In this document: one piece after another, positions 5,345 to 32,000 of the stretch
How positions within the stretch are numbered: position 1 is the stretch's first letter
Layout of the letters: every line of letters starts with the position of its first letter
Source of the DNA: Megasphaera elsdenii DSM 20460
Lineage (GTDB): Bacteria > Bacillota > Negativicutes > Veillonellales > Megasphaeraceae
Direction: 5' to 3'
NCBI RefSeq assembly: GCF_003010495.1
Contig: NZ_CP027570.1
Coordinates: 1,440,001-1,472,000, forward strand
DNA: 32,000 bases
The notes under the pieces: generated by a model
What the model was told of the DNA's origin: nothing
Database searches by the model: none
Seen by the model: the letters and a program-made list of their open reading frames with translations, nothing else
Translations under genes and position numbers: made by a program

Positions 5345-6529
5345 TTACAGACGTTCTACGATGATAGCCGTGCCCTGGCCGCCGCCGATGCAGAGGGAAG
5401 CCAGACCATATTTACCGTTGATTTCCGGTTCAGCCAATGCGTAGAGCAAGGTGACGACGATACGAGCGCCGGAGCAGCCAATCGGATGGCCGAGGGCGAT
5501 AGCGCCGCCGTGGATGTTGACTTTGTCCATGTTGAGGCCGAGTTCGCGGACGCAGTATACGGACTGAGCTGCGAAAGCTTCATTCAATTCGATGAGGTCC
5601 ATCTGGTCGACGTTCATGCCGGTCTTCTTCATGACTTTGCGGACTGCCGGAACAGGGCCAGTACCCATGATTGCCGGTTCAACACCAGCCGAAGCCCAGT
5701 CGATGATGCGAGCCAGCGGTTTGATGCCGAGTTCTTTAGCTTTTTCAGCGGACATTACGACAACAGCAGCTGCGCCGTCGTTGATGCCGGAAGCGTTACC
5801 AGCGGTAACTGTGCCGTCTTTGATGAAGGCCGGACGGAGTTTAGCCAGTGTTTCCATGGTGCAGTTCGGACGGATGAATTCGTCTTTGTCGACGACGACA
5901 TCGCCTTTTCTCTTATGGATCGTTACCGGAACGATCTGGCTGTCGAATTTGCCTTCCTGCTGAGCTTTGTAAGCCAAGTTTTCAGAACGGCAAGCCAGCT
6001 TATCCTGGTCTTCACGGGTTACACCGAAGCGAGCGGCAACGTTTTCAGCCGTTACGCCCATGTGGTAGTTGTTTTCCGTGCAGAACAGGCCATCGCGCAT
6101 GAGCAAGTCTTCGAGGACGCCGTTGCCCATACGATAACCGCGGCGGCCTTTAGCGATGGAGTAGGGGGCGTTGGACATGGATTCCATACCACCGGCTACG
6201 ATGATGTCAGCATCGCCGAGTTTGATCTGCTGGGAAGCGAGGGAAATGGCACGCATACCGGAACCGCAAAGTTTATTTAATGTGAAAGCAGGAACTTCCT
6301 GAGGAATACCCGAATGAAGGGCTACCTGACGGGCCGTGTTTTCACCGCAGCCAGCCTGGAGTACGTGGCCCATGATGACTTCGTCGATCTGGTCGACAGG
6401 AATACCTGCGCGTTTGATTGCTTCAGTAACAGCAGCTACACCGAGGTCTACCGCGGTGACGTCTGCGAACTGGCCATTGAAACTGCCGATGGCCGTACGG
6501 CAAGCACTTACGATAACAGCATCTCTCAT
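5345..6529 (-). CDS. acetyl-CoA C-acetyltransferase (thiolase II), paralog 2
   Basis: Track ORF 5345-6688. The internal ATG at 6529 ([19 protein letters not shown]) follows AAAGGATGG. Motifs are [15 protein letters not shown] and CIGGGQG. It is clearly homologous to, but diverged from, paralog 1 over the N-terminal stretch I aligned by eye. Confidence 0.95.
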
Positions 6530-6802
6530 TAGAAAAACCATCCTTTCGTGATGTGAAACAAAGTATAGAATAATATAGTATATAAGACTTAGTTGACGGA
6601 GCCGCCGCTTACGCAGCTCCTTGGGGGTTACGCTGAAATGAAGAACTTGAGTTCTAAATTTCACAATCTCCATGCCTATATAGTACATTTTTTCACAAGG
6701 AAATGCAAGAGGAAAATGAATTTTCCCTATGCTAGATAATCATGATAAAGAAAGGGTCAGATGAGAAAAGAATAAAGAGAACGAATAATTTGGTATACGT
6801 AT

Positions 6803-6893
6803 GGTTGGCGGCTAGCAGTCAGCAGCTAGCCGCTCGTAGGGCCGCCCTTTGGGACGGCCCCTACGAACCCCTAGCCACTAGCCCCTAACCACT
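6803..6893. repeat. composite intergenic repeat containing a GC-rich REP-like hairpin and CTAGCC/CTAACC heptads
   Basis: The hairpin is GTAGGGCCGCCC ttt GGGACGGCCCCTAC (6836-6864). It is followed by gaacccc tagccac tagcccc taaccac taaaaaa. Confidence 0.7.
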
Positions 6894-6928
6894 AAAAAAG
6901 GGCTTGCCGCGACGCGGCAAGCCCTTTT
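6894..6928. terminator. rho-independent terminator downstream of the 26-aa minus-strand ORF
   Basis: aaaaaa GGGCTTGCCGC gac GCGGCAAGCCC tttt. The hairpin spans 6900-6924. Confidence 0.7.
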
Positions 6929-6938
6929 CCTATTCCTT

Positions 6939-7019
6939 TTAAAGAAGATGAGCGATGAAACTGTACGAAAGTAAAGCGCCCATGGAGATGATGATTTTTG
7001 CGTCTGCACTTAAATTCAT
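6939..7019 (-). CDS. candidate 26-aa hydrophobic small protein (MNLSADAKIIISMGALLSYSFIAHLL)
   Basis: Hand-translated; not in the track. AAGAGGT lies 7 nt before the ATG (complement of 7017-7019). A strong terminator follows immediately after the stop. Confidence 0.35.
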   Translation of the reverse strand: MNLSADAKIIISMGALLSYSFIAHLL

Positions 7020-7505
7020 AGTTCTTACCTCTTTTCTTCTTTAATATATTGCAAAACTTAATAATTTTAATTATGTATCAGATATTGAATCCGGAAAGCG
7101 GAACTCTTTATCTATAAATATAATATCATATGCGTAAATAAAATCAATAGCCAGAAAATGCAACGACTTGACACCTGTATTACCACAATGCAAATATAGG
7201 CGTTTGAACAGTATAAAAACAGGAAAATGGCCGAAAAATCCTTTTAAATAGAATAAACAAAAGCAAAGGACAAGAAGTGTAAAAGTGAATAAAATAGATA
7301 TTTATTCAAAACAGAAAAATATTAAATTTTACGTTAAAATAAAGTATAAACTTAAAAATAGAAAAATGGTGACTGACAGGCACTAGCGACAGGGCGGGAA
7401 ATGCCTTATAATGGATACAATATCCTTTGATGCCGTGACGTCGTTACGGCTGTCATCAGTAAGTGAAATTATTATATAAATGTTTTATATAGTGGGAGGA
7501 GTATC

Positions 7506-12420: not shown

Positions 12421-12497
<77 letters not shown>

Positions 12498-12553: not shown

Positions 12554-12630
<77 letters not shown>

Positions 12631-15322: not shown

Positions 15323-15330
15323 AAACCTGA

Positions 15331-15427
15331 AACATGTGACTGACGGAAGTGGAGTTACCACGGGGAGCATGATTCATACGAGCCGACCGTCTGGGCGAAA
15401 CGTTCCAGAAGTGTCGGTATTTTTTTA
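15331..15427 (+). promoter_or_regulatory. ZTP (pfl-motif) riboswitch with terminator expression platform
   Basis: Conserved blocks are UGACUGACGG, GGAGUUACCACGGGGAGC and CCGACCGUCUGGGCG. Pseudoknot GACGG/CCGUC covaries with the consensus GGCG/CGCC. P1 is CATG/CATG. The terminator 15383-15427 shares CCGTCTGG with the aptamer and ends in T7. The downstream gene is an AICAR transformylase. Confidence 0.8.
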
Positions 15428-15457
15428 TTTTTGCTTAACTATTCAGGAGGAATCACC

Positions 15458-16633
15458 ATGAAAGAACTGCAATTAAAATACGGCTGCAATCCCAACCAGT
15501 CGTCGGCCCGGGTTTATATGAAAGATGGCAGCGACCTGCCCTTTACGGTCCTCAACGGCCGCCCCGGTTATATTAATTTGCTCGACGCCTTCAACAGCTA
15601 TCAGCTGGTCAAAGAATTGAAAGAAGCAACGGGCCTTCCGGCTGCGGCTTCCTTCAAGCACGTCAGCCCGGCTGGGGCCGCCGTCGCCACGGAAATGAGT
15701 GATACCCTGAAAAAAATATACTGGGTCGACGATCTGAAATTGTCTCCCCTGGCTTCGGCTTATGCCTGTGCCCGCGGTGCTGACCGCATGAGCTCTTATG
15801 GTGATTTCGTCGCCTTGTCCGACGTCTGCGACGTTGAAACGGCAACGCTCCTCAAACGGGAAGTTTCGGACGGTGTCATCGCTCCGGGCTACAGCGACGA
15901 AGCCCTGGCCATTTTGAAGACCAAGAAGAAGGGGAACTACTGCGTCCTCCAGATTAACCCGGACTACAAGCCGCGCTTAATCGAATCGAAGGAAGTCTAC
16001 GGCGTCACTTTTGAACAGGAACGCAACGAAGCTAAGATTACGACGGACCTCTTTAAGAATATCCCGACGAAAAACAAGGATATCCCCACCGATGCCCAGC
16101 GCGATTTGATGATCGCCCTCATCACCCTGAAATACACTCAGTCCAACTCGGTCTGCTACGTCAAAGACGGCATGACCATCGGCGTCGGCGCCGGTCAGCA
16201 GTCCCGCGTCCACTGCACGCGCCTGGCTGGTAACAAAGCCGATATCTGGTGGCTCCGCCAGAATCCGAAAGTCCTGAATCTGCCTTTCCGCGACGATGTC
16301 CGCCGCCCGAACCGTGACAACGCTATCGACGTCTACATCTCTGATGATTACGAAGACGTCCTGGCCGACGGCATCTGGCAGGATCTGTTCACGGAAAAAC
16401 CGGAACCGCTCACACGGGAAGAAAAGAAAGCCTGGATTGCCCAGCTCCACGGCGTCGCCTTGGGCAGCGATGCTTTCTTCCCCTTCGGTGACAACATCGA
16501 ACGGGCTCATCGCAGCGGTGTCGACTACATCGCCCAGGCCGGCGGCTCCATCCGCGATGACAATGTCATCGAAACGTGCGATAAATACAACATCGCCATG
16601 GCCATGACCGGCCTGCGCCTGTTCCATCATTAA
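15458..16633 (+). CDS. purH: phosphoribosylaminoimidazolecarboxamide (AICAR) formyltransferase, stand-alone AICARFT-domain PurH-like protein
   Basis: Track ORF 15431-16633. ATG 15458 lies 7 nt after AGGAGG. Contains KHVSPAG, SDGVIAPGY, GVGAGQQSRV, LGSDAFFPF and AQAGGSIRD. At about 391 aa it lacks the N-terminal MGS/IMP-cyclohydrolase domain. Confidence 0.85.
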   Translation: MKELQLKYGCNPNQSSARVYMKDGSDLPFTVLNGRPGYINLLDAFNSYQLVKELKEATGLPAAASFKHVSPAGAAVATEMSDTLKKIYWVDDLKLSPLASAYACARGADRMSSYGDFVALSDVCDVETATLLKREVSDGVIAPGYSDEALAILKTKKKGNYCVLQINPDYKPRLIESKEVYGVTFEQERNEAKITTDLFKNIPTKNKDIPTDAQRDLMIALITLKYTQSNSVCYVKDGMTIGVGAGQQSRVHCTRLAGNKADIWWLRQNPKVLNLPFRDDVRRPNRDNAIDVYISDDYEDVLADGIWQDLFTEKPEPLTREEKKAWIAQLHGVALGSDAFFPFGDNIERAHRSGVDYIAQAGGSIRDDNVIETCDKYNIAMAMTGLRLFHH

Positions 16634-26346: not shown

Positions 26347-26422
26347 GCCTCACCATGACAAAACCTGTCCTCCTCAGATGCTATAGTGAAGATAGAACTT
26401 GTATTTCACAGGAGGGATAGTC

Positions 26423-26914
26423 ATGGACAGAAGCGAACAGACCAAGAAAAATCAGGCCATCAATTTGTATACGTGGGGCTTAGAACTCCTCTCTGACGGC
26501 GGCCACGTCCGAGATGCCGATAAAGTGGGCTGGATGCTGATAGAAAATGCAGCCACCCAGGGCGACCGAGACGCTCAGAACTATTTAGGCGATGCCTATT
26601 TTTACAGTTACAAAAAAGATGAAAAAGCCGCCTTTTGGTACACCAAAGCCGCCGAACAAGGCCTGCCGGAAGCCCTGGCTATGCTGGGGATGTTGTATCT
26701 CCTCGGCCGTGGCGTAACACGGGACTATATCAAAGCACGCCAATACTTTGAACAAGCCTTACAAGACAACGAAGTAAATGTCGAAGCCGCTGTGGCCCAA
26801 TACTGGCTGGGCCAGATGTATAAAGAAGGCATCGGTGTTCCGAAAGACAGCGAAAAAGGCGAAAAACTGATATACCTGGCCGCCATAAACGGTTATGCAC
26901 CCCGTGGAAAATAA
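26423..26914 (+). CDS. Sel1-repeat (TPR-like) protein
   Basis: Track ORF 26399-26914. ATG 26423 follows AGGAGGGA. The repeats are AATQGDRDAQNYLGDAYFY..., AAEQGLPEALAMLGMLYLLGRGVTRDYIKARQYFEQA and YWLGQMYKEGIGVPKDSEKGEKL. Confidence 0.85.
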   Translation: MDRSEQTKKNQAINLYTWGLELLSDGGHVRDADKVGWMLIENAATQGDRDAQNYLGDAYFYSYKKDEKAAFWYTKAAEQGLPEALAMLGMLYLLGRGVTRDYIKARQYFEQALQDNEVNVEAAVAQYWLGQMYKEGIGVPKDSEKGEKLIYLAAINGYAPRGK

Positions 26915-27086
26915 GTGAGCGCAGGTCGCCGGTCGCCTCGGAATCAGATGCGGCTTTGCCGCAACAAACTCAAACTGACAACGGCGCTTCGGGAAACCCT
27001 CAGTGCGTAGCGGGCCGCCCGTCGTTGCCATTCGTCCAGGTAACCGTTCTGTACTTGACGTGTTAGGATATTTGGGCGGCCCCTCG
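26915..27086. repeat. GC-rich repeat block ending exactly at the left edge of the AT-rich island
   Basis: 26921-26972 matches 25982-26033 at 44 of 52 positions (hand alignment). GCGGGCCGCCC and GGGCGGCCCCTCGTATC are REP-like fragments. Confidence 0.7.
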
Positions 27087-27090
27087 TATC

Positions 27091-28710
27091 ATGATATATG
27101 GTATTTACAATGCAGGTAAAAGCAGTATCATCAATGAACTTATTCGTGAAGATAAAGCGAAAGTACAGGATATACCGACGACTGATAGCGTGGATTCTTA
27201 TGAATGGAATGGATACACCATTGATGACACACCGGGAGTTGGTGCTCCGATGAAACATGAAGAAGTAACTCAGGCACATTTAAAGCGAGCTGATATCGTG
27301 CTTTTTGTGATGAGTACGACTGGAGCTAATGAATTAAAACAAAATTATGAGCGAATGAAAGATATTGTAGATGCTGGTAAAAAACTAATTATTGTTTTAA
27401 ATGATAAAAATAGTGATTTAGAAACTAATGACAATGCGATTCAACTGATTAAGATGAAAGTTATCGAACACATGGAACAAGTCGGGATAGGGCAAGCTAA
27501 CGCTAACTATCATTTTGTTGTTGTCAATGCTCGCAGAGCTCATAAGGGAAGAATTGAGGATAAAATTCGCTTGTGGCAAAAGTCCCACATGGAAGAGTTA
27601 GAGCAGGTAATGCTTACAGAATTAAAACGGGCGGGTGGCTTTGAAGTTCTACAAAGAGCTATTCGGGATGTGGAACATTATATGGAACAAGCCATTGGCA
27701 TGCTGAGTAAAGTAGAAGGAGATAAACAGATAGAAGTACTTCATGAGGTTCTGGTCAATCTTCAAGAAAAAGGGAAACAAATGAAAGAAAACTTGAACCG
27801 AACAATCACTCTTGGCACTCAGCATTTAGGGACTACCTTACCGCAATTGATTTGGAATGAAAGTCAGCAAGGAGAAAAGAATGTCGAAGAGGACGTTGTA
27901 AATCAATTAATTAAAAAACATGAATCGCAGCTCATTGAAAAGATAGACAAAGAGCTATCTTTTCAATTTGAAAATATATGCCACGATGTGTCTGACTTAT
28001 TACAAGAACAATTAGAAGCTAATGTTTTGAAGGATTCACAAAATTTGCATTGTGTAGAAGTAGAAAAGGGAGGCGTGCAAGAATCTTCTTTGCAGGAAGT
28101 ATTAAATAAAGTACAGGAAATTTGCAATGCTGAAAATGCCATTACTGCCGGGAATTTTGATTCCTCTGAAGTAGATACCAACATTGGAGAAGATGTACTA
28201 AAGGCAGTTGCTAAAGGGAAGGCATTGGGCGAAATCGGTAATAGTGTAGGAAAAGCTTTGTTAGGTACGCAGCTGGGATCTATTTTGGGTAAATCAACGT
28301 TAGGGAAATTGATTCTTCCTTGGTTTCCGCCGGCTGAGGTTATCATGACTATTGTAGGTATTGCTCAACTCTTATTTGGTGATCATGGCGAAGCTAAACG
28401 AAAGCAGCAAGAAGCTGAAATGCAAAATGAAAGAATGCGACAAATCGCAGTAGCCAAACAACAAGCCAGAGAACAGTTACAGCAAAATTTTCAATATTAT
28501 GCGGATGACATGAGAAATAAATTATTAGCAGCTGTATTTTCTAATATTGAATTACGTATGAAAATTTTGAGAGAACCAGTTGTAACAGAGATTCAGCAAT
28601 TAAAATCAGATACAAAATCTCTAATGACAGATATTGATCAAATGCACCACTTATTAAATGGTTGTGAAGAATTACGTTGTCAAATAACAGATAATAAGCA
28701 GATTTGCTAA
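27091..28710 (+). CDS. dynamin-like / HSR1-type P-loop GTPase with C-terminal glycine-rich hydrophobic hairpin and coiled coils (possibly 5'-truncated)
   Basis: G1 is GIYNAGKSS at residues 4-12, G3 is DDTPG, and an NKxD-like LNDKNSD is present. A long helical middle region is followed by GKALLGTQLGSILGKSTLGKLILPWFPPAEVIMTIVGIAQLLFG, then a Q/E/K/R-rich coiled coil. There is no SD before the ATG, and only 3 residues precede the P-loop glycine. Confidence 0.75.
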   Translation: MIYGIYNAGKSSIINELIREDKAKVQDIPTTDSVDSYEWNGYTIDDTPGVGAPMKHEEVTQAHLKRADIVLFVMSTTGANELKQNYERMKDIVDAGKKLIIVLNDKNSDLETNDNAIQLIKMKVIEHMEQVGIGQANANYHFVVVNARRAHKGRIEDKIRLWQKSHMEELEQVMLTELKRAGGFEVLQRAIRDVEHYMEQAIGMLSKVEGDKQIEVLHEVLVNLQEKGKQMKENLNRTITLGTQHLGTTLPQLIWNESQQGEKNVEEDVVNQLIKKHESQLIEKIDKELSFQFENICHDVSDLLQEQLEANVLKDSQNLHCVEVEKGGVQESSLQEVLNKVQEICNAENAITAGNFDSSEVDTNIGEDVLKAVAKGKALGEIGNSVGKALLGTQLGSILGKSTLGKLILPWFPPAEVIMTIVGIAQLLFGDHGEAKRKQQEAEMQNERMRQIAVAKQQAREQLQQNFQYYADDMRNKLLAAVFSNIELRMKILREPVVTEIQQLKSDTKSLMTDIDQMHHLLNGCEELRCQITDNKQIC

Positions 28711-28797
28711 ATTATTATGTCATCCTTTAGAATACGAGAAAAGTAAATGAATATGTTTTTTGTCTTATAGTATTCTCCCTCCCTGGAAGATAAAATG

Positions 28798-28826
28798 TCT
28801 TGTGGGGGGGATTTTTATGCTATAAT
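28798..28826 (+). promoter_or_regulatory. candidate promoter of the 92-aa/rSAM operon with a G7 homopolymer in the spacer
   Basis: TG-extended -10 (TGCTATAAT; TATAAT at 28821-28826). The -35 is weak (TCTTGT/TTGTGG around 28798-28805). GGGGGGG occupies 28804-28810. Confidence 0.45.
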
Positions 28827-28862
28827 TGGTGCAAATAGAAAACGTGGAAGAAGGTAATCTAA

Positions 28863-29141
28863 ATGCCATTTTATAGTAATGCTGAATTTGCGGAAAAATT
28901 TGTTGAAGAAGTCATGCATTGGTATTGTAGTGATGATCACAGCAATACACAAGAAGAAGTTGCGAGACGTATGACTGATAAATATCATGTTGAATTTACA
29001 GTTAATGATATTAGAGAAATTACACAGTCTACTGGATTTTCTCATCGTATAAAACCGGAAAATTCTAGTAAACAGATAGTCCTACGATTGAGTAAAAATT
29101 TGCGTGATAAAATTGATAAGGCTAATCCACAAAAAAGCTAA
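28863..29141 (+). CDS. hypothetical 92-aa protein, possible small DNA-binding/regulatory protein
   Basis: Track ORF with a GAAGG SD. TQEEVARRMTDKYHVEFTVNDIREI is HTH-like, and the C-terminal KQIVLRLSKNLRDKIDKA resembles an RHH beta-strand/helix start. This assignment is weak. Confidence 0.6.
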   Translation: MPFYSNAEFAEKFVEEVMHWYCSDDHSNTQEEVARRMTDKYHVEFTVNDIREITQSTGFSHRIKPENSSKQIVLRLSKNLRDKIDKANPQKS

Positions 29142-29179
29142 TCTACCAAGTTGTTAAATGTTTACATGGAGGAAGTTTG

Positions 29180-30490
29180 ATGGGAATTAGCATAAGGTTG
29201 AACCAAGATATTTTTTATCGTAAATATGATAACAGTTATTATGTTTGGTCAACTTATAATCAAAGCGTTCAAACAGTCAATGAAATGGCGTTTGACATTA
29301 TTTCTAATTTGACTAAATCTTATATGCAAGACGATGAATTAATTGATAAATTAGCTTCGATTTATGATTTAACAACTGAAGACATTCAATGTATACTTGA
29401 TTTTTTATATGAATTAGAACGCATGAATATTGTTACAATAAAGGAAGACAATATCAGGCAGGGGTCTCCCGGAGATTTGAGTAACGAAATTGTTCGTTTA
29501 ACGGCAGAAAATCATCTTCTATATCAGGTCATGATTGAACTGACTTATGATTGTAATGAACGGTGTAAACACTGCTATGTAGAAACTTTTGATAAAAAAC
29601 AAAAACTTACTACATCAGAAATTTTTAATATTATTGATCAACTCAATGAAATGAATGTAGCTGATGTGGCTTTTAGTGGTGGTGATGTTTTTACTCGTCC
29701 TGATACCTTGGATATCCTTCAGTATGCTGTTGATAGTAATTTAATGGTAACAGTATTTACTAATGGCATAGCGTTGACAGATGATATGATAGAACGTATG
29801 TCGAAAATGGGATTAAAATGCGTCCACTTTAGTATATATGGAAGTAACGCTGAAACTCATGACGGTATTACAGGCGTACATGGATCATTTCAAAAGACAA
29901 TGCATTCCTTAAAAAATTTTAAAGCATTAGGCACTCCTGTCAATATGAAAGTTGTTTTAATAAAAGACAATATTCAAGAATATGATAATATTATGAACAT
30001 GGCTCAAGCCTTGGGAATCACGACACAGGTATCGACCAGTATCAGGCCAACTATGATAGGTGATAAAAGGCCAACTTTTCTTAGGGCTGATTTAGAAGAT
30101 ATTAAATATGTTATGCAACAAGAAGAAATTAAGCATCCTGAAGATAAAAATGTTTCTATTAATTTGAAACCTCAGACGATTTGCAATGCAGGTTTTAATT
30201 CCTTGACGATTAACCCTTACGGAGAAGTTTTTTTATGTATTTCTTTTGGGAAAAGCCTCGGCGATTTGAGAACAGAAAAGTTAGAAAATATATGGCATCA
30301 TTCTCCGATATTAAAAAAATGGAGACAATATAGATTTAAGGATATAGAGAAATGTTCTACTTGCGATTTATTGCAATATTGTAATTTCTGTCCTTCACAA
30401 GCTTACTTAGAAAATGGTGGGAATTGGCATAAGGCTTATGATGAGGCTTGCAAACTTGCAGCTCTTCAAAAGACAATTCTTAATCATTAA
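29180..30490 (+). CDS. radical SAM / SPASM-domain peptide-modifying enzyme with N-terminal RRE (PqqD-like) region
   Basis: GGAGGA lies 6 nt before ATG 29180. The CX3CX2C motif sits in ELTYDCNERCKHCYVE, with FSGGDVF also present. The C-terminal SPASM pattern is CNAG...GEVFLC...CSTCDLLQYCNFCPSQAY. About 105 N-terminal residues precede the rSAM core (YKLNESA-type: FYRKYDNSYYVWSTYNQSVQTVNEMAFDII). Confidence 0.85.
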   Translation: MGISIRLNQDIFYRKYDNSYYVWSTYNQSVQTVNEMAFDIISNLTKSYMQDDELIDKLASIYDLTTEDIQCILDFLYELERMNIVTIKEDNIRQGSPGDLSNEIVRLTAENHLLYQVMIELTYDCNERCKHCYVETFDKKQKLTTSEIFNIIDQLNEMNVADVAFSGGDVFTRPDTLDILQYAVDSNLMVTVFTNGIALTDDMIERMSKMGLKCVHFSIYGSNAETHDGITGVHGSFQKTMHSLKNFKALGTPVNMKVVLIKDNIQEYDNIMNMAQALGITTQVSTSIRPTMIGDKRPTFLRADLEDIKYVMQQEEIKHPEDKNVSINLKPQTICNAGFNSLTINPYGEVFLCISFGKSLGDLRTEKLENIWHHSPILKKWRQYRFKDIEKCSTCDLLQYCNFCPSQAYLENGGNWHKAYDEACKLAALQKTILNH

Positions 30491-30516
30491 AGAATAATCG
30501 AAAGGAGGGAGCGTCA

Positions 30517-30639
30517 ATGAAAGATAAAAAGAAATTTGTAAATCCTAAGATTATGAGTAAAACTAAATATCGTACTGCACAAAGCAGACCTTGTGCTCAT
30601 AATTTCAGCAATTGTACGTATAATCTGTATGTTAATTGA
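30517..30639 (+). CDS. candidate RiPP precursor peptide A (40 aa): MKDKKKFVNPKIMSKTKYRTAQSRPCAHNFSNCTYNLYVN
   Basis: Hand-translated and below the track cutoff. AAAGGAGGGAG lies 6 nt before the ATG, 27 nt after the rSAM stop. It aligns without gaps to peptide B. Confidence 0.7.
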   Translation: MKDKKKFVNPKIMSKTKYRTAQSRPCAHNFSNCTYNLYVN

Positions 30640-30656
30640 TGTAAGGAGAGATTATT

Positions 30657-30776
30657 ATGGAACAGAAGAAACAATTTTGTTTACCCAAAGCTTCTGCAGC
30701 GCAAAAATATGATATTGTTGTTGGAGCACGGTGTGCTCATTATATGACACATTGTAGTCACGCTAATACCAACTGA
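30657..30776 (+). CDS. candidate RiPP precursor peptide B (39 aa): MEQKKQFCLPKASAAQKYDIVVGARCAHYMTHCSHANTN
   Basis: Hand-translated. TAAGGAGAG lies 7 nt before the ATG. It shares M1, K4, K5, F7, P10, K11, K17, Y18, C26, A27, H28 and C33 with peptide A at identical positions. The DNA tgtgctcat is identical in both. Confidence 0.7.
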   Translation: MEQKKQFCLPKASAAQKYDIVVGARCAHYMTHCSHANTN

Positions 30777-30801
30777 TATATGTACTAATCATAGAAATAA
30801 T

Positions 30802-30845
30802 GACCATGAGCTTACGATTTTTTGTTATAAGCTCATGGTTTTTTA
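30802..30845 (+). terminator. rho-independent terminator after the precursor genes
   Basis: GACCATGAGCTTA (30802-30814) pairs with TAAGCTCATGGT (30828-39), followed by TTTTTT. Confidence 0.8.
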
Positions 30846-30879
30846 TCATATATTTTTGAAAAAGAGAAGGGAGAATAAT

Positions 30880-31188
30880 ATGGATCCGTATATTGTTACT
30901 GAGCAAGTAATAGACCTTATTATCGAACAATTGGCCCCAAGTGCCGATGAAATAGACAATATTCGGTTAGATACATGTTTGGTGGGTGATTTAGGCGCCG
31001 ATTCATTAGATATAGTAGAACTTACGGGAGCATTTATGGAAACTTTTGATATTTTCATTTCAGATGAAGAAGTTCGATCACTTGTATATAAAGATTACAT
31101 GGGTTCAGATATAGAAATACAGAGTTTTTTAGGTCTTATTATGTATAAAATAGAAGAAAGGGAAAGGCTTGAAAAAGAAGAAAAATAA
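30880..31188 (+). CDS. acyl/peptidyl carrier protein-like protein (102 aa)
   Basis: Track ORF 30835-31188. ATG 30880 follows AAGGGAG. It has the carrier-protein signature LVGDLGADSLDIVEL, with the DSL phosphopantetheine serine in a helix II context. Confidence 0.7.
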   Translation: MDPYIVTEQVIDLIIEQLAPSADEIDNIRLDTCLVGDLGADSLDIVELTGAFMETFDIFISDEEVRSLVYKDYMGSDIEIQSFLGLIMYKIEERERLEKEEK

Positions 31189-31237
31189 TTAGGGCTGATG
31201 AAAAAAATGATATAATATAAATAGATGGCATGGTGAA

Positions 31238-31273
31238 GGTATTGGATAATATTGAAAAATATTATCCAATACC
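31238..31273. repeat. perfect 16-bp-stem inverted repeat with GAAA loop (terminator or protein-binding site)
   Basis: GGTATTGGATAATATT gaaa AATATTATCCAATACC, read directly. Only a weak T-run follows it. Confidence 0.6.
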
Positions 31274-31346
31274 TATTTGTGATATTCGAATTTAATAGCG
31301 GGCCTTTATATTTATGATTTAGGTTTTCGAAGATGCTTTGCATGAG

Positions 31347-31368
31347 ATTCACAATAATTATTGTGAAT
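31347..31368. promoter_or_regulatory. perfect 22-bp palindrome ATTCACAATAATTATTGTGAAT (candidate operator upstream of ecsC-like gene)
   Basis: Read directly. It lies 74 nt upstream of ATG 31442. Confidence 0.4.
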
Positions 31369-31441
31369 GACAGAATTTGTCGTCATCATCTGCTATGATA
31401 TAGGTAAAGGAAGAATTTAGATGTTAGGGTAAGGTGATATT

Positions 31442-32000
31442 ATGGATGTAACGGCTATGGGAAAAGCTTTGTCAATGTCTTATGATAAGGCCCTCAGCGG
31501 CATTGCCGGTATGAAGGGCGCCGAGGCGTTGGCGGCGGAATATATGGCGACTGGCGATGATTTGGAGAAACAGGTGGATATGTTGATCCGCAATCAGGTC
31601 ATCAAGTGCGGTGCATCTGGCTTTTTGACGAGTTTAGGCGGCGCTATTACGCTGCCCGTGGCTTTGCCGGCCAATGTCCTCAGTGTGCTGTATATGCAGC
31701 TTCAGATGATTGCGGCCATTGCTCATATGGGCGGCTATGATTTGCAGAGCGACCGCGTGCGGACGCTGGTCATCGCCTGTCTTTGCGGCAACCAGCTCAA
31801 GGAAGTCTTGAAACAGGCTGGCATCAAGGTGGGGACGACGTTGACGGCTAAGGCGATTCAACGGTTGTCGGCAGTACTCTTCAACCGCATTAATCGGACG
31901 GTTACGATGCGTTTGTTGTCGCGTTTCGGGACGAAGAGCGCCATTAATTTAGGGAAGGCCATTCCCCTCGTTGGCGGTCTGATTGGCGGCGGCTTCGATG
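31442..32000 (+). CDS. EcsC-family protein (N-terminal part; continues beyond the window)
   Basis: Hand translation: MDVTAMGKALSMSYDKALSGIAGMKGAEALAAEYM...GFLTSLGGAITLPVALPANVLSVLYMQLQMIAAIAHMGGYDL...GKAIPLVGGLIGGGFD. It is open to the window end, and G+C returns to the core level. AAGGTGA SD. Confidence 0.7.
   Translation, partial: MDVTAMGKALSMSYDKALSGIAGMKGAEALAAEYMATGDDLEKQVDMLIRNQVIKCGASGFLTSLGGAITLPVALPANVLSVLYMQLQMIAAIAHMGGYDLQSDRVRTLVIACLCGNQLKEVLKQAGIKVGTTLTAKAIQRLSAVLFNRINRTVTMRLLSRFGTKSAINLGKAIPLVGGLIGGGFD

Follow-up and report, generated by a model that had tools for sequence, protein, structure and literature searches.

Does a radical S-adenosylmethionine (SAM) enzyme gene of Megasphaera elsdenii DSM 20460, followed at once by two small open reading frames (ORFs), encode a system for a RiPP (a peptide synthesized by ribosomes and modified post-translationally), and which cross-link would such a system install? 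The locus occupies positions 29180-30845 of a 32,000-nucleotide (nt) stretch of the genome (contig NZ_CP027570.1, positions 1,440,001 to 1,472,000, forward strand), hereafter called the window, whose numbering is used throughout. An initial annotation, made from the sequence alone, had proposed a RiPP maturase with two cognate precursors of an unnamed family, and both the domain models and the linkage seen in homologous loci agree with it. We consider it very likely that the locus is a real cassette for a radical-SAM-modified RiPP (RaS-RiPP). The best overall explanation, which we judge probable, is an intact operon in which a maturase combining a RiPP recognition element (RRE), a radical-SAM core and a SPASM domain acts on duplicated precursors to give a thioether-type product.

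The maturase and its two peptide genes

The maturase gene, pepA and pepB form an intact three-gene operon with the following features.

29180..30490, + strand: maturase gene (RRE, radical SAM, SPASM), 436 amino acids, ATG start; CCC73276.1 / AVO74685.1, M. elsdenii
29180..29446, + strand: N-terminal RRE (precursor recognition), residues 1-89; family profile match, AlphaFold2 model, PF05402 in homologs
29534..30001, + strand: radical-SAM core, residues 119-274, CX3CX2C (C125, C129, C132); PF04055
30182..30451, + strand: SPASM domain, residues 335-424, seven cysteines; PF13186 over residues 335-396 and cysteine census
30503..30508, + strand: Shine-Dalgarno sequence AGGAGG, 8 nt 5' of the pepA ATG; direct sequence reading
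30517..30639, + strand: pepA, precursor peptide of 40 amino acids, MKDKKKFVNPKIMSKTKYRTAQSRPCAHNFSNCTYNLYVN; identical to CCC73277.1, MELS_1055
30643..30648, + strand: Shine-Dalgarno sequence AAGGAG, 8 nt 5' of the pepB ATG; direct sequence reading
30657..30776, + strand: pepB, precursor peptide of 39 amino acids, MEQKKQFCLPKASAAQKYDIVVGARCAHYMTHCSHANTN; ORF list
30802..30845, + strand: intrinsic terminator ending the maturase-pepA-pepB unit, a 13-bp stem followed by a U-tract

All three genes appear in the ORF list where the initial annotation had placed them, the maturase ATG standing three bases past an in-frame TTG. The genes are separated by 26 nt (maturase to pepA) and 17 nt (pepA to pepB), and each small ORF has the strong Shine-Dalgarno sequence claimed for it. 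The terminator, described at the outset as clean, folds with a dG of -20.8 kcal/mol (z = -6.65), which none of 200 shuffled sequences equalled; a simple terminator scan missed it because its loop is longer than 8 nt. A promoter scan found no excess of promoter-like matches over shuffled sequence. The remark that the small ORFs were missing from the ORF track holds for the track then at hand, but public records call both as genes: pepA as 'hypothetical protein MELS_1055' (M. elsdenii DSM 20460) and pepB likewise as 'hypothetical protein'. The exact maturase protein is found on 127 contigs, that of pepA on 396 and that of pepB on 559, complete genomes included.

The domain architecture of the maturase, an RRE, a radical-SAM core and a seven-cysteine SPASM domain, was confirmed by several approaches. 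Pfam models for the radical-SAM fold (PF04055, residues 119-274, 6e-24) and the SPASM domain (PF13186, residues 335-396, 1.8e-11) match directly. The RRE model PF05402, suggested earlier as a third check, is silent on the window maturase in the Pfam scan, though it is on record for the homologs P0009, P0021 and P0037. A family profile (A1) built from 22 homologs and searched against solved structures in the PDB matches the lasso-peptide RRE TbiB1 at positions 3-85 (E = 2e-4). In the same alignment, C125, C129 and C132 are invariant in 22/22 homologs. The SPASM cysteines C335, C353, C392, C395, C401, C404 and C424, which include a CX2CX5CX2C arrangement, are invariant at six positions and present at C392 in 20/22 homologs; all seven align with SPASM cysteines of CteB. 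An AlphaFold2 model of the cluster representative P0001, which differs from the window maturase at one residue in a disordered linker (S96F), has a mean predicted local distance difference test (pLDDT) score of 89.9. Its residues 1-89 form four strands and then three helices, followed by a partial TIM barrel and a Cys-rich C-terminal domain. The RRE-like N-terminus read from the sequence is thus borne out by the TbiB1 and CteB profile matches, by the PF05402 entries of the three homologs and by the modelled strands and helices.

The nearest solved structures are CteB, SuiB, SkfB and PqqE. The A1 profile matches SkfB best (6e-34), followed by PqqE (2.7e-26), and aligns over its full length with CteB (1.3e-20; profile positions 18-431 against chain residues 15-442) and with 8vpo (3e-16). 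A Foldseek search of the model against the PDB returned SuiB (2.5e-18) and CteB (3.9e-18) as its top two hits over ~460 aligned columns, and the maturase is only ~17% identical to CteB. Against NCBIfam, each of the best 25 of 70 matches falls under its curated cut-off, so the maturase belongs to no characterised equivalog. The top score is that of TIGR04053 (132.7 against a cut-off of 395 bits), followed, among others, by MftC (TIGR03962, 123.8/265), WgkB (118.8/650), PqqE (TIGR02109, 114.8/381), AlbA (94.5/850, aligned over residues 34-408, RRE included) and StsB (89.6/625). The SCIFF maturase model is not among these 25. A separate identity as a prokaryotic viperin (pVip) defence protein was rejected, as the PADLOC matches cover the generic radical-SAM core only (residues 118-274, 62 bits).

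The two peptides align without gaps and are identical at positions 1, 4, 5, 7, 10, 11, 17, 18, 26, 27, 28 and 33, exactly as first listed; 12 such identities were reached by 3 of 200,000 shuffles. The pepA peptide has two cysteines and ends in ...YVN; that of pepB has three, one within the leader, and ends in ...NTN. The core-coding DNA of pepB repeats that of pepA at a spacing of 140 nt (repeat D3), which suggests a tandem duplication. Comparison with L005, a metagenomic contig 95% identical over window positions 28973-31191, shows coding constraint acting on both peptides: pepA differs by 4 synonymous and 0 nonsynonymous changes, and pepB by 1 synonymous change and a TGA-to-TAA stop swap, again with 0 nonsynonymous changes. 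The maturase has 26 synonymous and 18 nonsynonymous differences. On L005 itself (208-1518), the maturase is split into 276 and 145 amino acids without an indel, implying a premature stop codon, and both peptides are intact and protein-identical; the split reflects either a pseudogene or a sequencing error.

Linkage of enzyme and peptide across the family

Whether homologous maturases carry related small ORFs had been set beforehand as the point on which the proposal could fail, and they do, at the same position. Among 5.8 billion proteins, 45 maturase clusters matched at E <= 1e-10, ~20 of them full-length. A small gene lies directly downstream in every fetched context of homologs 37-47% identical to the window maturase, encoding peptides such as MKTKQKKFVIPKVRKVAKYSIVNSARCLHLRSTGCQHTYNN, MKREKKKFTMPKVRKIKTYGIATSGACKHLRSTGCGHTYNN, MKENNKKTFVLPKLIASGNYEIAYGKGCMKYPSKCSHTHTK and MTFKMPSIIAAGEYVQSMANCCTRLSQGMCGITYRTNS. 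A scan of GTDB species genomes yielded 79 loci, including 25 full-length ones that could be evaluated. In 25/25 of the latter an ORF of 32-50 amino acids sits at the maturase stop, starting between -34 and +76 nt from it; the exception in distance is the frameshifted L036, where the small ORF starts at +207 nt. These full-length homologs share 33-47% identity with the window maturase and come from Selenomonas, Clostridia and Endomicrobium. Six shorter homologs, which leave the first ~95-110 residues of the window maturase (its RRE) unaligned, were examined and had no such small ORF.

The peptides share a pattern that is rare elsewhere. The expression Y.{7}C.{5,8}C.{3,10}$ fits 27/584 small ORFs in the full-length loci, and 25 of the 27 are the abutting ORF; at loci whose homolog is shorter or more distant the figure is 1/1098, and in the window the only fits among 133 small ORFs are pepA and pepB. 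Searching the protein database with a 30-peptide profile brought up 47 peptide clusters, of which none has an informative name. In an independent set of 49 (46 of these clusters and three window-clade sequences), the pattern holds for 46; of the three misfits, one has a frameshifted tail, one a Cys-to-Gly change (on a contig of 556 nt) and one, P0170, a Tyr-to-Phe change. A second peptide copy is also present at L030.

Tyr18, Cys26 and Cys33 (numbered as in pepA) are the only residues invariant across the 30 aligned peptides, which revises the proposal of C-A-H-x4-C as the core motif: the exact C-A-H is private to pepA and pepB, with C-L-H or C-K-H in three close relatives and C-M-K in a fourth. 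The family pattern is instead a short leader, Tyr, x7, Cys, x5-9, Cys and a tail of 6-9 residues. The leaders have 8-17 residues ahead of the Tyr and include a strand of hydrophobic character that frequently reads F-x-x-P-K-hydrophobic; in 29/30 peptides, one of the polar residues E, Q, D, N, S or T stands 2-3 residues ahead of the second cysteine. Cores of the Clostridia clade read CC-T/S-K/R ... C-G-I-T-Y-R-T-N-S, and a third peptide group has H-C-H/T-Q-...-C-x-P. The maturases split into the same groups as the peptides. Those of the Clostridia clade have four extra, co-varying cysteines (134, 247, 320 and 360 in window numbering) that are absent in the Megasphaera/Selenomonas clade, and their precursors show a CC doublet at the position of the first cysteine; together, the extra cysteines and the doublet may reflect a different cluster ligation or an additional cross-link.

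Taken together, this is a small uncurated RaS-RiPP family of 45 maturase and ~47 peptide clusters in gut and rumen Clostridia, Selenomonadaceae and Endomicrobium. The peptides lack a model in Pfam and in NCBIfam: pepA and pepB have no NCBIfam precursor match at E <= 10, the SCIFF model included, and scans of 10 diverse family peptides against both collections at the same threshold gave nothing meaningful. We found no literature on the locus or the peptide family, the supplementary catalogues of large RaS-RiPP surveys lying outside the search. The earlier description of the product as probably uncharacterised agrees with this; the maturase, too, lies under the NCBIfam cut-offs of the 25 best matches.

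Likely chemistry and competing explanations

By analogy, the system appears to behave like a SCIFF/ranthipeptide or a small sactipeptide system. SCIFF/thermocellin (CteA-CteB) shares the RRE, radical-SAM and seven-cysteine SPASM layout, and the profile aligns with CteB over its full length. Both are minimal cassettes of an enzyme and a small peptide in anaerobic Firmicutes, without protease or transporter, and the cores of both contain cysteines at the C-terminal end. SCIFF precursors, however, have about six cysteines in 45 residues, whereas those of the window family have two (or three); the Tyr-x7-Cys motif has no SCIFF counterpart, and the position of the peptide gene downstream of the maturase is a further difference. 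The precursor cysteine count and models, and the maturase models among the best 25 of 70, place the locus outside SCIFF. Sactipeptide precursors are likewise short and low in cysteine, and SkfA carries one thioether and one disulfide. Sactipeptide clusters normally include protease, ATP-binding cassette (ABC) transporter and immunity genes, all absent at the window cassette, and the maturase falls outside the characterised sactisynthase families (AlbA, StsB, SkfB, Trn, Thn). AlbA aligns with the RRE included. The likeness to SkfB, the best PDB sequence match, is limited to the core domain. In SkfB a twitch domain bearing a single auxiliary cluster stands in place of a full SPASM domain (PMC8172795), such as the window maturase has.

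SuiB, the streptide enzyme, has the same three-domain layout, and the SuiB, WgkB and NxxcB systems resemble the window cassette in their short precursors and small operons. Of these streptococcal maturases, some join Lys to Trp or make other cross-links without Cys, and others form a beta-thioether at an NxxC motif. The KxxxW, WGK and NxxC motifs are absent from pepA and pepB, and the Rgg/SHP regulator and exporter of the streptococcal systems are absent at the locus. PqqE and MftC are also SPASM enzymes that act on very short peptides with a critical Tyr, as here; the RRE is fused in the window maturase, whereas it is a separate protein (PqqD or MftB) in the pyrroloquinoline quinone (PQQ) and mycofactocin systems. 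The two peptides lack the terminal Val-Tyr of mycofactocin and the E-x3-Y of PqqA. The MftC score, the C-termini of both peptides and the neighbours (a GTPase, a 92-residue protein and an acyl carrier protein (ACP)-like protein) set the locus apart from mycofactocin; the PqqE score and the absence of the motif and of pqqB/C/D neighbours set it apart from PQQ. What the locus does have are the generic features of the RaS-RiPP class: a CX3CX2C core, a seven-cysteine SPASM domain, an RRE and a co-occurring adjacent peptide. We would class it as a new family, not yet curated, of a known kind, the radical-SAM/SPASM-modified RiPPs.

A plausible mechanism follows from these relatives. By inference from CteB, SkfB and AlbA (PMC8172795), the leader would dock as a strand on the N-terminal RRE, and a 5'-deoxyadenosyl radical produced at the SAM cluster would take a hydrogen off a core residue that serves as acceptor. 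The thiol of each conserved Cys would then form an intramolecular thioether of the sactipeptide or ranthipeptide type, giving one or two rings with a mass change of -2 Da per link, and, as in CteB, the SPASM clusters would anchor the thiol and serve as electron sink. Candidate acceptors are the polar residue 2-3 positions before the second cysteine and the conserved Tyr. We lean slightly towards such a Cys thioether, by analogy, for three reasons: Cys is the only side chain conserved along with Tyr; the best PDB matches of the profile are the thioether synthases SkfB and, at full length, CteB; and the window clade has exactly seven SPASM cysteines, comparable to CteB, whose auxiliary cluster has an open site that binds a substrate Cys (PMC8172795). 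A non-thioether cross-link is the less expected outcome, and the remainder of our expectation goes to an inactive system or unknown chemistry.

Several points weigh against the thioether operon. Its support comes from sequences and models, and likeness in fold or sequence cannot separate thioether from C-C chemistry: SuiB, which forms a Lys-Trp C-C bond, ties with CteB in Foldseek, and PqqE, MftC and WgkB score no worse than AlbA and StsB in NCBIfam. The open-site argument is made weaker by Cys320 of the Clostridia clade, which could complete the auxiliary-cluster ligation. The alignment of 30 peptides shows no strictly invariant acceptor, and the conserved Tyr might just as well act in leader recognition or as partner in a C-C cross-link. 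Finally, the premature stop on L005 may mean that at least one lineage has lost the function.

The main chemical rival is a non-thioether modification at the conserved aromatic residue, such as a C-C or C-O cross-link formed by the Tyr (a cyclophane, or a bond like those of streptide or PqqE), in which case the two cysteines would be joined in a disulfide or be no more than handles or cluster ligands. The conservation of the Tyr equals that of both cysteines, its fixed Tyr-x7-Cys spacing suggests that it lies within the modified core, SuiB, a C-C enzyme, tops the Foldseek list, and PqqE (Glu-Tyr C-C), MftC and WgkB score at least as high as the sactisynthases. Yet Tyr is replaced by Phe in P0170, a sign that the hydroxyl may not be needed; the Tyr stands at the expected leader/core junction or RRE-binding motif; and two conserved cysteines beside a SPASM enzyme are, across the RiPP class, most often thioether donors. 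On balance we regard a Tyr cross-link as unlikely. A bolder proposal, that Tyr-x7-Cys-x5-9-Cys marks a RaS-RiPP class with an undescribed cross-link (for example Cys-Tyr or Tyr-centred, plus a thioether), an unusually short leader, a stand-alone two-gene cassette and an intracellular or signalling role in gut and rumen anaerobes in place of that of a classical bacteriocin, seems to us slightly less likely still.

Other alternatives concern function and integrity. The product could be an intracellular or signalling peptide, either a SCIFF-like signal (in quorum sensing or physiology) or a redox-cofactor precursor like mycofactocin or PQQ, and no secreted bacteriocin, which would explain the absence of protease, exporter and immunity genes. 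This concerns function, not chemistry, and is compatible with the thioether operon. SCIFF ranthipeptides are linked to quorum sensing and their cassettes are equally minimal; here too, only the maturase and its peptide(s) are conserved amid very different neighbourhoods, and the peptides (32-50 residues) and leaders (8-17 residues) are short. A cofactor role is disfavoured by the lack of mftB/D/E/F or pqqB/C/D companions and by MftC and PqqE scores far under cut-off, and the strong divergence of cores between clades, with duplication of the peptides (pepA/pepB and L030), looks more like a diversifying natural product than a cofactor. We consider an intracellular or signalling role possible, if doubtful. 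That the cassette of this strain is an unexpressed relic on a decaying mosaic island is improbable. At the left edge of the island a dynamin-like GTPase gene has lost 55 codons, the maturase of the related contig L005 contains the premature stop, and promoter-like matches are no commoner than in shuffled sequence. Set against this are three intact ORFs with strong Shine-Dalgarno sites and a terminator, peptide changes relative to L005 that are silent only, and exact copies of the proteins on hundreds of contigs, complete genomes among them. Least credible of all is that the small ORFs arose by chance in AT-rich DNA while the maturase acts elsewhere. AT-rich sequence imposes few stop-free constraints and neither peptide matches any model, but position and pattern are kept beside enzymes of 33-47% identity from several phyla, and the linkage in homologs, the silent changes and the shuffle test effectively refute this explanation. 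Having weighed these alternatives, we retain the thioether operon as the best account of the locus.

Genomic setting and significance

The cassette lies inside an island of ~33% GC (about 27082-31450), in surroundings of ~53% GC with the flanking housekeeping genes ffh, rimM, trmD and yebC. The island is a mosaic of a GTPase remnant and a RiPP module, the latter corresponding to the block 28973-31191 common to the window and L005. Two further genes flank the operon.

28863..29141, + strand: protein of 92 amino acids, co-inherited with the module in Megasphaera only and not family-wide
30880..31188, + strand: orphan ACP-like gene (phosphopantetheine-binding, DSL motif), 3' of the terminator

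The 92-residue protein has no Pfam, NCBIfam or PADLOC match and was rejected as a conserved regulator, being unrelated to the helix-turn-helix protein at the same place in L001. The ACP-like gene matches PF00550 (1.9e-4) and ACP models of NCBIfam (up to 1.9e-12, all under cut-off); it is absent from the other family loci inspected, and its linkage to the cassette is seen in Megasphaera only. The window and L005 copies differ by 7 synonymous and 31 nonsynonymous changes, at a nucleotide divergence of 15% (3.7% for the maturase), which suggests either that recombination broke at the terminator or that selection on the gene is relaxed or diversifying. Downstream of it, positions 31237-31274 form a terminator-like inverted repeat, perfect over 17 bp and with a loop of 4 nt, near the GC transition on the right-hand side of the island.

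The left part of the island (27082-28785) contains the 3' part of a LeoA/LeoBC-like dynamin GTPase gene (ORF 27091-28710) that lacks its first 55 codons; an intact form is P0089, of 594 amino acids. A dynamin-type defence system (LeoA/LeoBC pair) was rejected, since the window has a single, N-terminally truncated LeoA-like GTPase that is not conserved with the maturase family. In place of its 5' end, a GC-rich, non-coding spacer of 170 nt (26915-27085), without an Rfam match, separates it from a Sel1-repeat gene (26399-26914). In L090 (2000-10900) the intact GTPase gene closes an uncharacterised low-GC cluster of ~9 kb with three dynamin-like GTPases, a 362-residue radical-SAM/SPASM enzyme and a 580-residue B12-binding radical-SAM enzyme. 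In L005 (3402-7333), the one other setting of the near-identical module, it again adjoins two dynamin-like GTPases, of 538 and 763 amino acids, which are distant from that of the window (31% identity over the G domain). The shared GTPase neighbourhood, which is missing from more distant family loci, could stem from a functional link or from a hotspot that the islands have in common. Sel1/TPR-repeat proteins recur near members of the cassette family (window 26399-26914, L001:7411-11320, L010:1-3933 and 5796-7250), as does an AAA+ ATPase in L001 and L010, these genes being non-adjacent in most loci.

Family-wide, the conserved unit is the maturase with its peptide(s) alone. The neighbourhoods vary, from ribosomal-protein genes and ylqF/obg-type housekeeping genes to integrases, relaxases and transposases, and no protease, exporter or immunity gene accompanies the cassette in the family loci inspected. 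The initial annotation was thus right that these genes are missing here; what it called unusual is the usual state of the family. The island borders show no tRNA and no flanking direct repeats. Megablast of positions 26500-32000 against E. coli genomes and PLSDB plasmids gave no match, tblastn of the maturase against plasmids gave only matches of <=30% identity that leave the N-terminal RRE region uncovered, and an IMG/VR scan returned one 25% relative; on these near-empty searches, the cassette is not demonstrably phage- or plasmid-borne. Elsewhere in the window, a ZMP/ZTP riboswitch (15326-15403; Rfam RF01750, 59 bits) stands in its classic context directly 5' of a gene that encodes an AICARFT/IMPCHase (purH-type) domain (15431-16633), and two tandem tRNA-Ile(GAT) genes occupy 12421-12497 and 12554-12630.

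Many uncharacterised RaS-RiPP families exist, so the value of this one lies less in surprise than in being a well-validated and cheaply testable lead. The locus is a compact, testable enzyme-substrate pair, with two natural substrate variants here and ~47 core variants elsewhere. One solved product would annotate the whole family and add a data point for predicting radical-SAM/SPASM chemistry from sequence, still an unsolved problem. M. elsdenii, a lactate utiliser with a use as a probiotic, is abundant in the rumen and in the gut of pigs. If many of its strains make a modified peptide, that peptide could influence how members of these communities compete or signal.

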